A stretch of 64,000 bases of DNA, from contig OY970209.1 in NCBI GenBank assembly GCA_963713855.1, forward strand, positions 1,248,001 through 1,312,000, in the 5' to 3' direction. The position numbers were made by a program. Within the stretch, counting starts at the first letter, position 1, and each line of letters begins with the position of its first letter. Source of the stretch: an uncultured bacterium (GTDB taxonomy: Bacteria > Babelota > Babeliae > Babelales > Babelaceae). This document shows, in pieces, positions 15,001 through 21,000 of this stretch.

Positions 15001-18000
15001 AGCCGTCAACAAAATGTATAAAAAGGCAAATCTTCTTATCACCAAAGAAAATACCCTAATTTAAAAATTCACCTTCTGATTGCACTGTCTCGGCTAAATT
15101 TTGAGCTTCTTTTAGAAGTTTCCGGAGACATTCTATTACTTCATCCGAGCTAGAAAAAGGCTTATCGAGTGAAAGCTGATAGTCCACTTGTTCGTACAAA
15201 TTAAAACTTTGGACTAGAGCGATCGCCATGGGTATTACACCGGCTGCTCCTAAGCTAGTACTTGCTAAACCTGCTGTCTTGGATCCTAAAATAAAGCACG
15301 CAGCACCCACTATATATACTCCAAGAATAATGCTTCCAGAAGTAAAAAAGCCCCATATTTTTTCTTTTTCTTCTTTTTCAGCCTCTTTTAACGCTAATGC
15401 GATTCCAAGACCTAGATGATCAGAGTTCAAGACGCGTTTTAGATCTTAACTTTCTAACTCTGAATAACATTCTTTAAAAAGTCGCTTATTTTCAAGTACA
15501 TGCCGAAGATGTAAAACAAGCACATCCAAAGTCCAGCTATCTGTATTCTGATGATTAGAAATGCGGTAAGTTCCTTCTACTTCACCGTCTGTGGAGGTGT
15601 TTGCTTGTAAAGTTAAAAATGAGCAACTTGCTAAAATGATGCTGATATAAAAAAAGATCTTGTAACGTAACATGTAACTAACTCCTTTAGGCAATATGAT
15701 TTTGATAATCTTACCGTATTGCCGGGTAAAAACAAGCGCAAAACCGTGAGGCTTATTGCGTAAAAAAATCTATCGGTATTAGATAGCAGTAGTTACAACT
15801 TCTTTATTCAGTAACGCGATTACTTATACTCCAAAAATGGAAATATAACAAAGAAGCCGATCTTTTACGGATTTCACGCGTCAGATCCAACATATCCCTA
15901 AACCCCCCTTCAAAGCATTAACAAAAGACCCGAAATGATGCAAGAAAAATAAAATAGCATTTTAAAGTTCACAATAGTAATAATGAAAGCGGAGATTTTA
16001 AACGAATGCGTTCGAAATTTACTGCTCAAATAAGGCTCTATAATTTTTACGTTACTAGTTGACAAAATTTAAGCATTTTAATAATGTTATTGCAGGTTTT
16101 TTAAATACTCAATTTTACAGCTAAGTTCGATTACTATGACAAAGCATATTCTTTTACTTTTTTTCTTAATGCCTTTTTTTGTATATGGTATGGAAGAACG
16201 AAACACGCCCGGAACTAACTCTCTTCCATCGCCGATAGCATTCTCGCAAGATGGGCGCGCGCTTACTCCAGAAGAACTTCTTACCAATCAGATGCTCGCA
16301 GCAGCTCATGCGAATGCACCAACAGCATTTTTTATGCAGCTTATTCTCCAGGGCGGACCTTTTAGCGATTTAAATAGGGAGCTATTACTGCAAAGCATGT
16401 CTCCCATCGAAAACTTTGGCTCAGGCAACGAAGATATTCACTATGACCCATGCATTTTTCTGTGGTTTCTTTTAAGATGTGATGTATCCAAAAAAAGTAA
16501 ACACAGGCTCGTTTGCAGTCTACGTCGTATGTTTGTCGCGCCCACCGGTGAAAAAACATGCTTCGATGAAAGACTTGGCATTCTGCTAAAAACGCTTATT
16601 TTTGGCGATGCGTCCGTGCGCGAAGAAAGGCTTATGCATTTAAAAGAAAGCTTTGCAAATGGTTTATTATCAGAACTTGAAAAGAGAGAAATTCAAGAAT
16701 CATTTATTTACGCAGTTTCTCACGGCAAAATTAGCATGGCTCTCACTCTTTTATTGGAGTTTCCAGGAATTCTCACACAAGAAATACTTTTGGAGGCGCT
16801 GCAAGCTGCGACTCTTAAAAACGAACCAGAGATTTTTGCAGCTATAATTGAAAGCGGACTTCTTACAGGAGAAAATCTGAGATCAGCTTTAGTCGACAGC
16901 CTCATGCTATCTGGCGCTCTATTACATACGCCCATCTTTAACTCTGTACTACATTTTGAAAGAGCTAACATAGGCAACCTTGTTATTGAGCCTGTCACAA
17001 ATCACATAGGCACGCTTTTAAACAGCGGTTTTTCTGAGGACATAAATACACAGTATGGGCAGCTGATAACGGTCCTTGAACATCATGTCCATGAAAGAAG
17101 TATCCAAGCAAGCGCGGAATTACTGCAATCATTTTTAGCTCAACAAGAACCAGGAATACCGTTAGCAGGAGAGCTCATACTCGTTCAATTGTTTCAAAAC
17201 GCAATTGGCAAAGGAGTTTAGCTCAGTCACCAAATACTTGCTTATGCCAATATGCTTTTTTACCTTCGTAAAACCATTTTTTGTTATTTTTGGTCATAAA
17301 TCTTTTAAGTTGCTTCATGTCTATTTTGTAACGGTAGAATAAAGCAAGTAGATCCCTCAGATCAGCATCAAGAAGTTCATCTCTCGTTACAATGAGATGT
17401 ATTGCGTCCTTAACGCCTTTAACATTGGCAATATAAGCGCCGTGTCTTAACCACTCGAAAAAAGCGATTTCGTCAACTGGTGAATAGAATATCACCCTCT
17501 TACAAATAAGAGTATTCTTATCGGTCTTTGTTGCATTCTCCTCAGCTTCATTCTGAGGATAGACGTTGTGGTGACGGCCTGAAGGATGAACAACATCCCA
17601 ATGAGGAGTATAGTAATTTTTATTCTTGTTCATATGAATGATAGCTCCTGCTCCATAGTTTCATTCACTTTTTACCTTCGATAGCTTTAATGATACTTGC
17701 TACAACTATGTCTTGAGCCGTGGTAAGCTCTATATCTTTATTAGCAATAAGCTCTTCTATTTCTTTTTCAACAATAGGCCAAAGTGGATAGGATTTATAA
17801 TATGCTATACGTTCTTGATAAGTCATGTGCTTATTTTTTGATTTCACTTTTGCTTTCATCGATTTGAAGCTTTTTAGTCGCCATACCAAAAGCCATGACT
17901 AATAGTGCCACCCATGCCCTTGGCTTTTGCCTTTTGCTCAGGCGATAGACCCAGGAAATATATTCCTTCCCCTCTTTCCAAAGCTTTGCTCATATTTTTT

Positions 18001-21000
18001 TGCCAGTCCTTATAGATTTTGCCTTCAGGAATGATTCTTTGAGAAAATTCAAATAAAGCTTCATAAAAATAGGGAAGCGACGAAATTTCTTGTAAAGTAT
18101 CACATACTTCGATGCTTTCAACAGCAACTATTCCAAATTTTGACAAATGTTTTGTAACTATATCGAGAAGTGGCTGCGGATCTACACGATTAAAAATTCG
18201 ACCCCACGTTATGAACCCTACTATGCCAAAGGTCTTGTCCACTATCTTAATGCCAACTAAATCTTCCATCGATTCTCAATAAATCTTCATTATATCGATA
18301 AAAACGATTTTATTCTGCACATAGTAGTCCACTGTTCAAGTCTTCTAATTTTACAACCCATTCAGAAATTTTTCCCTCTTGCCCGAGATGGTATTTTGGC
18401 CCAATAAAGCTATAGCAATCGTCGACGGTAAAAGCACCTGGAGCTATTGTTTCTCTAAGAAGTTCTGAAACTAAGATTTGATTATGGAGGATGATTTTAT
18501 CGTTTTCCCTATACAGGGTCCACCAGTTAATAAAAGGTCTTTCTATCCCCGGCACCATATTAGGATTTTGCACTGTAGTCACTAGGCACGATGTTGGTAA
18601 CTTTTTTATCCTCTCAAGCCCTTCATGCCACTGTCTCTTATAATCTCCCAAGCTCCATTGAGCAACAGACATGACAAACTTTTCTTCAAAGTCGTTAATT
18701 TGTATTCTGCCCCAATAGCTAAGTAAACCATTTATTTTCTTCGGCTTATCGCTAACTACTTGTATTAATAGGCCTTTCATTAGTCTCCTACCCTGTCTTT
18801 TAAATCATCATCTGAGTAGGTTCCCTCACGGTTTCCATGCTTATCAAAAACTTTCCAACGACCTCCCTTATGACCATCGACATCAGGGGAAACATATCTC
18901 GTACCATCTTTAAACACAGGTTGTCCGTGAGAATCTATCGGAGCATCATTTACTTCTTTCCATCCTTTCTCACCTGCTATTTTACGGGCGTCTTTTCTGG
19001 TCATGTTCTGAATAATATCATCATAATCATAATCTACTCCACCTTTTGCACCCATCTTTCTCATCGCTCTATTAACAGCCCAAGTTGCCGCCAAAGCACC
19101 TACCGTATATACTGTCGCAGCTCCGATAGCATCCCATCCAGCAAATGCAATACCACCTGCGCCCCAGACGATCAGCGGTATAACATTATGTACAAGAATG
19201 TCTTCATGAGATATACAGAAATTTTGAAACTCCTCTACAGCGATATTGTATGCAACATCTTTCAATGCTACTGCTTTTACATGCTCAACAACAACCGGTT
19301 CAAAACAGTTCTTCAAAAGAACATGCCCAGCTTTTAGTTCATCAGCTAGAATCCAATCTTTTTCTGGCGCCAAATAAAACTTATGATCATCTGCCACAGT
19401 TATTGCTTGACCATTAACCGTAACGATAAAAAACCCACCTGCGTGCTTTTGTTGAGTGTGGGTAACTCTTCTTTCAACACATGCGCCTTGCAAATCGAAG
19501 CTGATAACGACATCATCTACTTTAAGTTTCTCGATGGGTGTATAACCTTCTGGCGTTTTGACTAATGTTCCGGCTATAAATCCTTCACCATGAGCAAGGC
19601 TTATTGTTAAAAGGCATAAAAGTATTAACATTCTTTTCATAATATTTTTTAACCTCAGATATTGCTAACGTACAATCAAAATTCGCTTTATTTTAGAACA
19701 AACTATGGTAAAGTCAATGTTTTCTAAGTAATATGAGAAAAACGACAAACTCGAGAAAACATGAAAAGCACTATTACTCTTTACGAGCTTGAAACGTATT
19801 TAAACTCACTTTTAGACCCAAATAAGATGGAAGATGGCTGCCCAAATGGTGTACAAATTGCAAATGATCAACCTATTGAGCATATTGCAACAGCCGTAAG
19901 CGCTAGCCTTGAAGCTATAGAAAAAGCAGCAACGCTTAACGCTCAAGCATTGATAGTACATCACGGCATATTCAAAAAAAATGATCCCTATCCTATTACC
20001 GGAACTAACTTTCGGAAGATAAAAACGCTTATGGAAAATGGTATCGCGCTTTTGACATATCATTTACCCTTAGACGCTCATCGTACCCTTGGAAATAACT
20101 GGAAAGCCGCGTATGACCTAGGGCTAACCGACTTACAACCATTTGCTGAATATTGCAAGGCGCCCATTGGTGTTATCGGTTCACTAAAGCCCACACCGTT
20201 TAAGACTTTTAAAGAGAAAGTTGAGTCGTATTACAATCGCCCTGCGCAAGCTGTTTGCGTTAAAGATCCTGTCACACGTATAGCAATAGTTTCTGGTGCT
20301 GGAGAAAAGTGTATCGCGGAAGCTCAAAAAGAAGGCGCAGATTGCTTAATTACTGGGAGAGTCGATGAGCCCGTATGGGACAATGCTCACGAAGAGGGTA
20401 TCTCATTCCTCGGATTAGGGCACTACGCAACTGAGGTTATTGGCGTGAAAGCACTCGCTGATCATCTTGAAGAGACGTATCGAATTCCTTGCACATTTAT
20501 TAAGACAAAAAATCCCTTTTAAAAATAGAAAGGGGCATTAACCCCTTTCTCTCTAAAGCGATTAAATTACTTTCTAAGAAACTGGCCAGTGCATAATTAA
20601 ATCAATAAAGAGCCTTACGCCGAATCCTGTAGCGCCCCATCGGTAGTAGCTAATATCGGGCACGTTAAATGCTGTACCAGCAATATCCAAATGTGCCCAA
20701 GGAACTTCTTCAACAAAATTATTTAAGAAAAATCCTGCCGTGATGGCCCCTGCACGGTACTTATCTTGACCGATGTTACAAATGTCTGCTATCTCAGAGC
20801 GAATTGACACTTTGTAATCGTCATGGAATGGTAACCTCCAAACACGATCACCGGTCCGATGAGACGCAGCTTCAATTTTTTCAACAAGTGAATCATATTT
20901 GCTTACAAGACCACTGTAAAAAGGCCCTAACGCGGCAGCACAAGCTCCAGTCAACGTAGCCGCATCAATAATTGCATCAAGCTTATAGTGCTTAACGGCG

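Follow-up and report, generated by a model that had tools for sequence, protein, structure and literature searches.

An uncultured bacterium of the Babelaceae (assembly GCA_963713855.1) raises the question of what an obligate intracellular lineage does with short genes in which a signal peptide is joined directly to a Hint domain beginning with Gly instead of Cys, followed by a hydrophobic stretch and a toxin tip. We analyzed a window of 64,000 nucleotides of contig OY970209.1 (positions 1,248,001 to 1,312,000), in which one such gene heads an array of small co-oriented genes (Table 1). The genome-wide survey's note had reported seven loci of this kind, and the family profile recovered exactly seven in the source genome, at the places named, all of which (7/7) have Gly ahead of an F-x-x-G/P-T-type motif. 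Three loci are intact, two broken, and two tipless (4/7 broken or tipless). The split of g584/585 and the tipless state of g834 and g1187 (Intein_splicing match, E 0.0014) were as described; for g1345, the reported stop was found, and in addition a frameshift lies inside the tip. The pairs Ntox33 (g1352) with DUF4279 (g1353), Fil_haemagg_2 (g682) with YxiG (g681), and barnase with barstar (g1317/1318) were likewise confirmed.

Table 1. Features of the toxin-immunity array and of the second Gly1-Hint gene in the window (window positions).
Feature	Position	Strand	Remarks
Predicted Sec signal peptide	19587..19640	-	aa 1-18; read from sequence
Hint / A-type BIL-like domain	19185..19583	-	aa 20-152; Pfam PT-HINT
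Uncharged Gly/Ala-rich hydrophobic segment, then basic residues	19071..19184	-	aa 153-190; putative membrane-entry segment
Ntox21 toxin tip, colicin E3-like RNase	18780..19007	-	Pfam; PDB 4NTQ_A
Cognate CdiI immunity gene, 156 aa	18310..18780	-	CdiI_N; PDB 4NTQ_B
Probable orphan immunity gene, 131 aa	17874..18269	-	one relative's post-tip gene
53-aa ORF, co-oriented within array	17665..17826	-	may be gene remnant or non-gene
Remnant of Ntox37 tip end (PHWDV motif)	17553..17612	-	in frame with small immunity gene
Small immunity family member (g1148)	17223..17522	-	ORF 17223-17633; likely Ntox37 partner
Tipless, degenerate Gly1-Hint gene g1187, 5' part	63346..64000	+	extends beyond window end

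The toxin gene (ORF 18780-19640, minus strand) encodes 286 aa comprising the signal peptide, the Gly1 Hint, the hydrophobic stretch, and an Ntox21 tip. On inspection, the signal peptide has a basic start, a hydrophobic core, and a small residue at -1, and putative cleavage after A-H-G would place the mature start at Glu19-Gly20. In 71 of 86 relatives, a hydrophobic core is found no more than 22 aa from Gly1. NCBIfam named nothing in the window, and promoter and terminator scans remained at chance (8 against 8.3 and 2 against 1.6, respectively). A look-up of sequencing runs listed none for this locus. The repeat search detected no recombination repeat, only short two-copy matches, and a synteny comparison through the NIF3 neighbor gave no match in a same-genus genome.

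The tip (g1152) and its adjoining gene (g1151), which the survey had named Ntox21 and CdiI, correspond to both chains of 4NTQ, a CDI complex of solved structure. The tip was detected by Pfam Ntox21 (E 8.8e-10, aa 224-286) and by 4NTQ_A (E 1.5e-11), and the neighboring ORF (18310-18780) by CdiI_N (E 6e-18) and 4NTQ_B (E 1.9e-9). The active site of the 16S rRNase CdiA-CT(ECL) consists of D203, D205, H207, and K214, as given in the relevant part of PMC9086364, and all four align with identical residues in the window tip (D253, D255, H257, and K263). The start codon of the immunity gene (ATG) overlaps the toxin stop by one base.

Farther along the array, the 131-aa ORF is probably an orphan immunity gene: it is 44% identical over 109 aa to a gene directly following an Ntox17-like tip, in one relative only, and it has no match in Pfam, NCBIfam, or the Atlas. 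The 53-aa ORF has no significant relative in the source genome or in 80 relative loci. The survey had described g630, g1148, and g1344 as orphan copies of a new small immunity family lacking a Pfam match. The absence of a Pfam match was borne out, and neither NCBIfam nor PDB matched the family, profile search included; it has 593 database relatives, with no Pfam domain among the 120 listed, and falls into unnamed Atlas clusters only. As to orphan status, g630 alone of the three stands by itself in the source genome. g1344 lies immediately downstream of g1345 and its broken Ntox37 tip (Pfam E 1.7e-7), and g1148 opens with a 20-aa Ntox37 remnant (E 0.028 over Pfam positions 58-77, not passing the cut-off) whose PHWDV motif matches intact Ntox37 tips in the alignment. 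Members of the family directly follow all eight intact Hint-Ntox37 genes (8/8), and the family is likewise present in each of the 35 genomes in which an Ntox37-type tip was matched (35/35). From these associations, the family is likely the cognate immunity of Ntox37 tips. Fourteen of the 49 carrier genomes lack an Ntox37-type tip match, and tandem arrays exist. Structure predictions for a complex between the small immunity protein and an Ntox37 tip scored 0.01, 0.43, and 0.00, which speaks neither for nor against the pairing.

The Hint domain of the window (Pfam PT-HINT, E 4.6e-12, aa 26-152) was modeled by AlphaFold with a pLDDT of 95-98 across model residues 1-130, and Foldseek superposed it on the Clostridium thermocellum BIL 2LWY with a target-normalized TM of 0.92 and an rmsd of 1.3. 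It shares the Hint fold and the C-terminal His-Asn with A-type BILs and PT-HINT domains. Position 1 is Gly20, Ala83 replaces Thr in block B while His86 is present, F:4 is Asn132, Gln139 replaces His at F:13, and the domain ends in His151-Asn152 with Val at +1. Among 90 relative Hints, position 1 is Gly in 88 and Ala in two, with neither Cys1 nor Ser1 in any (0/90), and block-B Thr and His are both kept in one (1/90), which excludes a canonical A-type BIL or PT-HINT. The terminal His-Asn is kept in 85/90, F:13 is His in 76/90, and F:4 is Asp in 18/90 and Cys in 3/90. The residues rule out splicing by class 1, 2, or 3 intein routes. A class 2 (KlbA) intein is defined by a Cys+1 nucleophile, Ser at G:6, and Thr B:7, His B:10, and Asp F:4, and here Cys occurs at +1 in none of the 90, while G:6 is His, not Ser, in 86. 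The counts at F:4 and +1 likewise exclude a class 3 intein, which has Cys at both positions.

Because Cys1 is lost throughout, block-B Thr and His persist together in one Hint, and His-Asn is retained in 85, at most C-terminal cleavage would remain. This residue-based reading strengthens the survey's proposal of C-terminal-only cleavage, which had cited the loss of Cys1; the loss extends to block-B Thr/His, and the +1 residue is non-nucleophilic. With a mean column identity of 28% across the relative Hints, the alignment indicates that the C-cleavage residues (His-Asn and F:13 His) are selectively retained. Database matches separate along similar lines: Gly1 Hints begin no more than 60 aa from the N-terminus in 116 of 121 and are followed by a hydrophobic stretch in 111 of 118, and Cys1 Hints keep the block-B His in 98 of 107 and precede such a stretch in 6 of 104.

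A hydrophobic segment follows the Hint in 82 of 88 relatives, with a median uncharged length of 40 aa and a median Gly+Ala content of 27.5%, and a mostly basic stretch comes next in 52 of 83. In the AlphaFold model of the window toxin (pTM 0.57), it is predicted at low confidence, a helix spans model residues 158-178, and the segment is not packed against the Hint, which speaks neither for nor against its shielding. On an approximate scale with rough weighting, the median insertion score of these segments is +0.92 (window, +1.63), compared with -1.12 for the helices that polytopic proteins of the source genome contain; 19 of 85 score as favorable membrane helices, that is, true membrane anchors. 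The hydrophobic stretch is missing from two Gly1-Hint toxins whose GH19 tip would have its site of action outside the cytoplasm, and the start of their neighbor is leader-like.

Across the order, the chassis was matched in 90 of 261 genomes with a single protein and in 110 of 261 with a profile; the survey's counts (30 of 101 genomes, and Gly in 24 of 27 motif matches) were not reproduced. In the contig scan, a single-protein query confirmed nothing and a narrower alignment gave 22 loci. A few carrier genomes are labeled outside Babelales, so the chassis is not quite exclusive to the order. A constant N-terminal export and processing part carries eleven tip clusters with at least two members, plus singletons, and the cognate immunity gene directly downstream changes with the tip. 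The correspondence between tip clusters and next-gene clusters is close to one to one in 80 loci drawn from the stronger single-protein matches, in genomes that are related and not independent: tipA keeps its partner in 17/19 (the other two have no called neighbor), tipC in 6/6, and the DUF6980-linked tip in 13/14 (one without a neighbor). Strongly supported branches of the Hint tree force at least five changes for Ntox21 and seven for tipA, and two Hints of one genome that are 80% identical bear different tips; tip type nonetheless shows partial clustering on the tree (25 changes vs 36.4 when shuffled). In fold, the commonest tip of the order resembles the 5T87 CdiA-CT (Foldseek E 4.5e-7; VIA Z 10.6, rmsd 1.1, 67 aligned). 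No Pfam toxin family was found in 66 of 85 post-Hint regions, and PDB profile searches with two unnamed tips gave nothing significant. Orphan cassettes occur in the window (17223-18269), as g630, and in tandem arrays. The tip and next-gene match, the tip swaps, and the two chains of 4NTQ bear out the polymorphic toxin-immunity reading.

We consider these loci, with a probability of about 0.68, to be a stalkless, Sec-exported polymorphic toxin-immunity system with a self-cutting Hint, aimed at bacteria and probably at kin. Sec would export a precursor of about 290 aa, from which signal peptidase would strip the leader; with the leader removed, the Hint would therefore form the N-terminus, with no N-extein to cut. 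Having lost its N-terminal chemistry and kept His-Asn, the Hint would cut itself off once through Asn cyclization, and the fragment set free would begin with some 40 residues of marginal hydrophobicity. This segment may insert into the target membrane and bring the tip into the cytoplasm, where, judging from homology and the active site, the window tip would act as a colicin-E3-type 16S rRNase and halt translation. The translationally coupled CdiI would shield the producer, and downstream and scattered orphan immunity genes would guard against tips that the strain does not make; from these orphan genes, the main rivals would be relatives sharing the host cell or food vacuole. The window toxin carries neither a stalk nor a receptor-binding domain, and a route out through the outer membrane was not identified. 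In its fullest version, the proposal is a receptor-free, self-uncapping delivery route: the Gly1-Hint would be a natural C-terminal-cleaving cap that unmasks an N-terminal membrane-entry peptide, this peptide would bring interchangeable RNases into rival bacteria, and the route would be used order-wide in contests with kin over host cells. The acidic food vacuole might be the trigger of the cleavage, because low pH promotes C-terminal cleavage in inteins, according to part of the intein literature. This version is tentative, and we doubt it more than we favor it.

The same toxin-immunity system may instead hold a Hint that is a dead scaffold, serving receptor binding or shielding of the segment and removed by another protease or never. 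Degeneration affects Cys1, block-B Thr/His, and F:4 Asp alike, the window copy has no F:13 His, and C-terminal cleavage depends on earlier steps in some inteins, as described in passages of PMC4031507. Retention of His-Asn and F:13 His at so low a column identity speaks against a dead scaffold, as does the dispensability of F:13 His in some inteins noted in part of the literature, and we regard it as unlikely.

Bacteria are the best-supported candidate target of the tips. Host-directed effectors, whose tips would strike cytosolic RNA or the mitochondrial ribosome of the protist while the immunity proteins guarded the producer only during synthesis, would suit obligate intracellular life (TLC transporter matches occur in the source genome) and Sec export into a host compartment, which requires no bacterial receptor; a relative with many signal-peptide proteins replicates wrapped in the host mitochondrion, as reported in sections of PMC6561590. 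However, mitochondrial integrity is preserved in that host according to the same sections, orphan and tandem immunity genes would be useless against a host, those tips that were identified belong to the antibacterial domains of CDI type, and immunity genes are mostly absent from host-directed arsenals of intracellular bacteria in the passages of PMC3482391 on this subject. A host target is thus quite improbable. We give still less credence to a self-directed, membrane-anchored toxin-antitoxin module for abortive defense or addiction, in which the segment stops transfer, the Hint is periplasmic, and the tip lies in the producer's own cytoplasm. The basic stretch after the segment and the 19 favorable helices would fit such an anchor, but the median and window insertion scores, rough as the weighting is, lie far from those of polytopic helices, the GH19-tipped versions have no segment, and tip swapping with orphan immunity suits conflict between cells.

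Among known systems, the unstalked Sec-exported HINT polymorphic toxins (Zhang et al. 2012, PMC3482391) resemble the Gly1-Hint toxins in the order of signal peptide, HINT, and variable C-terminal toxin, in adjacent immunity genes and orphan cassettes, and in their Ntox21, Ntox33, Ntox37, and colicin E3 tips. Compared with the descriptions in passages of that paper, the Hint here is the whole N-terminal chassis, starts with Gly1, has lost block B, and leads into a hydrophobic segment, and the Ntox37 partner, Imm32 there, has no Pfam match here. The Gly1-Hint architecture is a variant within this known class, one absent from those passages. Neisseria MafB/MafI, as outlined in parts of PMC7738311, likewise combine a Sec signal, an optional Hint, a C-terminal toxin, and an immunity gene, and are used among relatives. 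MafB places DUF1020 between signal and Hint and has the dedicated exporter MafA, whereas the window toxin has no DUF1020 Pfam match, a Hint from residue 20, and no co-transcribed upstream exporter.

CdiA-CT/CdiI pairs of Enterobacter cloacae (4NTQ) and Cupriavidus taiwanensis (5T87) have the same toxin domains as Gly1-Hint tips, and the window pair shares the immunity family and the conserved active site with 4NTQ. Unlike CDI (CdiBAI), the window toxin has no TPS domain, filamentous stalk, or receptor-binding domain, and its carrier is shorter than 200 aa; a ShlB search for CdiB gave no match in the source genome and none in control genomes either. A-type BILs such as 2LWY and the Pseudomonas syringae CdiA BIL, as covered in portions of PMC4725963 and PMC4031507, share the fold, the His-Asn end, a non-nucleophilic +1 residue, and proneness to cleavage, but the Gly1 Hints have lost Cys1 and Thr-x-x-His, which the 107 Cys1 Hints mostly keep, and, once the signal is cleaved, would lack an N-extein. 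The CRCT/CRCA modules of rickettsiae, in the relevant passages of PMC9111745, are also CDI-like toxin-immunity pairs of obligate intracellular bacteria with a proposed role in interbacterial antagonism; they are sporadic and often degraded pieces of larger toxins, whereas the Gly1-Hint chassis is compact and complete and was matched in 110 of 261 genomes. Our literature searches for such a toxin system in Dependentiae/Babelota, with subscription papers mostly outside their reach, returned no relevant paper.

A widespread, probably interbacterial arsenal in an obligate intracellular lineage would imply competition within host cells, and the Gly1-Hint systems run counter to the pattern of intracellular parasites without immunity genes. 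They supply a likely immunity partner for Ntox37 and several unnamed tip-immunity pairs, and their Hints, predicted to be natural C-terminal-only domains, would be useful for work on intein mechanism. As the Gly1-Hint toxin is among the smallest complete chassis, stalkless, injection-free entry of an RNase can be tested with one 270-aa protein.

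Five co-oriented ORFs, all on the minus strand, occupy positions 17223–19640 of the window and are flanked by a NIF3 gene (divergent) and a 361-aa gene (convergent). The first two encode a Hint toxin with an Ntox21 tip, i.e., the variable C-terminal toxin region, and a CdiI protein. The tip matched chain A (E 1.5e-11) and CdiI chain B (E 1.9e-9) of the complex in PDB 4NTQ, whose toxin is described as a 16S rRNase with active-site residues D203, D205, H207, and K214 (PMC9086364); D253, D255, H257, and K263 of the window tip occupy the aligned places. The family profile recovered the seven Hint loci that the genome-wide survey's note had reported for this Babelaceae genome (G000), with Gly at position 1 in 7/7. 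In three of them the gene is unbroken and its tip is followed by a further gene, the pairs being Ntox21/CdiI, Ntox33/DUF4279, and one without a name; of the other four loci, two are disrupted and two lack a tip. The CdiA-like haemagglutinin-repeat gene with YxiG and the barnase–barstar pair of the same note were also present; no transporter gene was seen beside the former. The secretin-domain cluster of G000 is a candidate outer-membrane exit route. A further run of six ORFs in the window looks like a paralogue array; Pfam gave no significant match for the five searched.

Coordinates of the features (G001 and G054, other Babelales genomes; L, fetched loci)
Feature	Location	Strand	Remarks
Hint-Ntox21 toxin gene, first ORF	window 18780-19640	-	286 aa; PT-HINT E 4.6e-12, Ntox21 E 8.8e-10 (Pfam)
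CdiI gene, second ORF	start overlaps toxin stop by one base	-	CdiI_N E 6e-18
Six ORFs in a row	window 12410-15694	-	four (190-200 aa) have a leader-like start and hydrophobic segments
Haemagglutinin-repeat gene	G000:C1:755009-760147	-	1712 aa; leader-like start; YxiG neighbour
Barnase-like gene, then barstar	G000:C1:1443074-1444028	+	leader-like start
Secretin-domain cluster	G000:C1:253381-262459		two very long genes (about 970 and 1000 aa)
Ntox37-type tip and small immunity gene	G001:C29:4577-4807
Ntox37-type tip and small immunity gene	G054:C1:516889-517119
Gly1-Hint, GH19 tip	L116:2390-4169; L117:2357-4166		next gene with leader-like start
Tipless Gly1-Hint genes	L095:3190-4041; L098:940-1671; L068; L059:4426-5079; L090:1075-1707; G000 905411-906043

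The AlphaFold model of the mature window protein was confident over the Hint domain, which superposed on the bacterial intein-like (BIL) structure 2LWY (TM 0.92 by target length, rmsd 1.3). For the family, an order-wide search was followed up by taking 80 regions surrounding its stronger matches, which gave 90 Hint ORFs; 54 weaker matches and some others lie outside this sample. Gly occupied position 1 in 88, the other 2 having Ala; the block-B His was replaced by Gln in 82, and block-B Thr and His occurred together in 1. Cys was found at F:4 in 3 and at +1 in none, His-Asn ended the domain in 85, and the F:13 His was retained in 76. Under the definitions in PMC4031507, these residues rule out cleavage at the N-terminal end and splicing by the class 1, 2, or 3 route. 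The pattern of Gly1, lost block B, no Cys+1, and kept His-Asn would leave Asn cyclisation to the family, and the survey's reading of C-terminal cleavage only fits these residues. In the same paper, C-terminal cleavage is stated to be favoured by low pH, the F:13 His to be dispensable in some cases, and some inteins to cleave only once earlier steps are done. Because the window Hint has Gln at F:13, with His86 kept, its activity is predicted with less confidence than that of the family.

The Hint domains of 162 database proteins and five control loci were compared using a profile built from Gly1 sequences, and the figures are thus class contrasts, not population frequencies. Gly1 domains began no more than 60 residues from the N-terminus in 116/121 and were followed by a hydrophobic stretch in 111/118 (a few misses being parsing artefacts), against 6/104 of the Cys1 domains. 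The latter kept the block-B His in 98/107, with Thr in 92, and +1 was mostly Lys. Eight proteins (P0016, P0022, P0025, P0047, P0051, P0064, P0075, and P0093), in which a signal peptide directly precedes at least three tandem Cys1 Hints ending in His-Asn-Lys, are a separate class; the three compared have a similar C-terminal domain in common. P0018 and P0035 each carry two tandem Gly1 Hints, the first without His-Asn.

A hydrophobic segment of about 40 uncharged residues (Gly+Ala 27.5%) was present in 82 of 88 relatives. On an approximate scale with rough weighting, its median membrane-insertion score was +0.92 (favourable in 19/85), between helices of polytopic proteins (−1.12; 146/195) and soluble windows (+6.58; 0/477), and its hydrophobicity is therefore marginal. 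This fits Sec passage followed by later membrane insertion; the scores are also compatible with the segment anchoring the protein in the membrane. Two Gly1-Hint proteins with a GH19 tip lack the segment, as expected if it serves only cytoplasm-acting tips; both come from one genome, a 45% GC record labelled Myxococcales. Tipless Gly1-Hint genes recur, and in two (L095 and L098) only a Gly/Ala-rich hydrophobic peptide of 70–110 aa follows His-Asn. These peptides, reminiscent of class II bacteriocins, may be pore-forming cargo instead of relics.

Among 85 post-Hint regions, Pfam recognised Ntox37 (8), Ntox21 (6, one below cut-off), colicin E3 (4), and Ntox17 (1, weak), and found no toxin family in 66. 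On clustering, the next gene tracked the tip (17/19 for tipA, the commonest, with a fold like the CdiA-CT of 5T87; 13/14 for the DUF6980-linked tip; 6/6 for tipC), and Ntox21 tips had two alternative partner genes. In a tree of the 60 Hints with commoner tips, rows with rare or no tip being left out, supported branches require repeated tip changes, and the Ntox21 gene of the window groups as sister with the Ntox37 gene of its own genome (support 100/96). Tips of one type still sat together more than when labels were shuffled (25 changes, against 36.4).

The Hint profile matched 110/261 genomes of the order (84/189 near-complete ones; up to 9 matches per genome), the architecture being checked for the 90 Hint ORFs. 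Because 5 of 22 loci from a one-motif genome scan lay in records labelled Myxococcales, Methanobacteriota, or Berkiella, the chassis (signal peptide, Gly1-Hint, and hydrophobic segment) is enriched in the Babelales lineage and probably extends beyond it; labels may be wrong, and neighbouring genes in the Methanobacteriota-labelled record look bacterial.

This is a real polymorphic toxin–immunity system with a chassis that is distinctive and minimal when set against the available text of Zhang et al. 2012 (PMC3482391), its architecture supplement aside. That text lists HINT among toxins exported by Sec, along with short forms lacking a stalk, gives Imm32 as the Ntox37 partner, and describes immunity genes as mostly absent from intracellular bacteria, Odyssella being an exception. 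MafB carries DUF1020, and optionally a Hint, between its signal peptide and its toxin (PMC7738311), the CdiA BIL of P. syringae autocleaves (PMC4725963), and Rickettsia has CDI-like toxin–antidote modules (PMC9111745). Unlike canonical BIL, MafB, and CDI systems, the Gly1-Hint system lacks membership features of each; by analogy, it would work like unstalked Hint-processed toxins and is a variant within that known class. As a whole, an unstalked Hint-processed toxin with immunity on a minimal chassis is the best explanation (probability roughly two in three). For Babelota, PMC6561590 describes export through Sec, what look like vesicles inside the food vacuole, and mitochondria that stay intact; the word "toxin" does not occur in the available text of that paper or PMC12172432, and literature searches retrieved no paper on this toxin system in the lineage.

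The small immunity family is probably cognate to Ntox37 tips, because it directly follows 8/8 intact Hint-Ntox37 genes, the 35 genomes with an Ntox37-type match all fall within the 49 carrying the family, and, going by the listed coordinates, a member of the family begins no more than 60 bases from each of the best 25 tip matches. The copies that the survey had called orphan are so only in part: g630 stands alone, after a gene we take from its translation to be trpS, but g1344 comes after the broken Ntox37 tip of its own locus, and g1148 forms a fusion with a remnant of such a tip. The Ntox37-type tips of G001 and G054 may ride on another carrier; a single-protein search found no Hint in either, nor did the profile in G001. 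In 14 genomes (one a weak case; the genomes are incomplete) the family occurs with no tip matched, several genomes hold tandem copies, and a 131-aa ORF of the window is similar (44% identity) to a gene after an Ntox17-like tip elsewhere. Mainly from such stockpiled immunity genes, we infer that these bacteria face incoming toxins from relatives.
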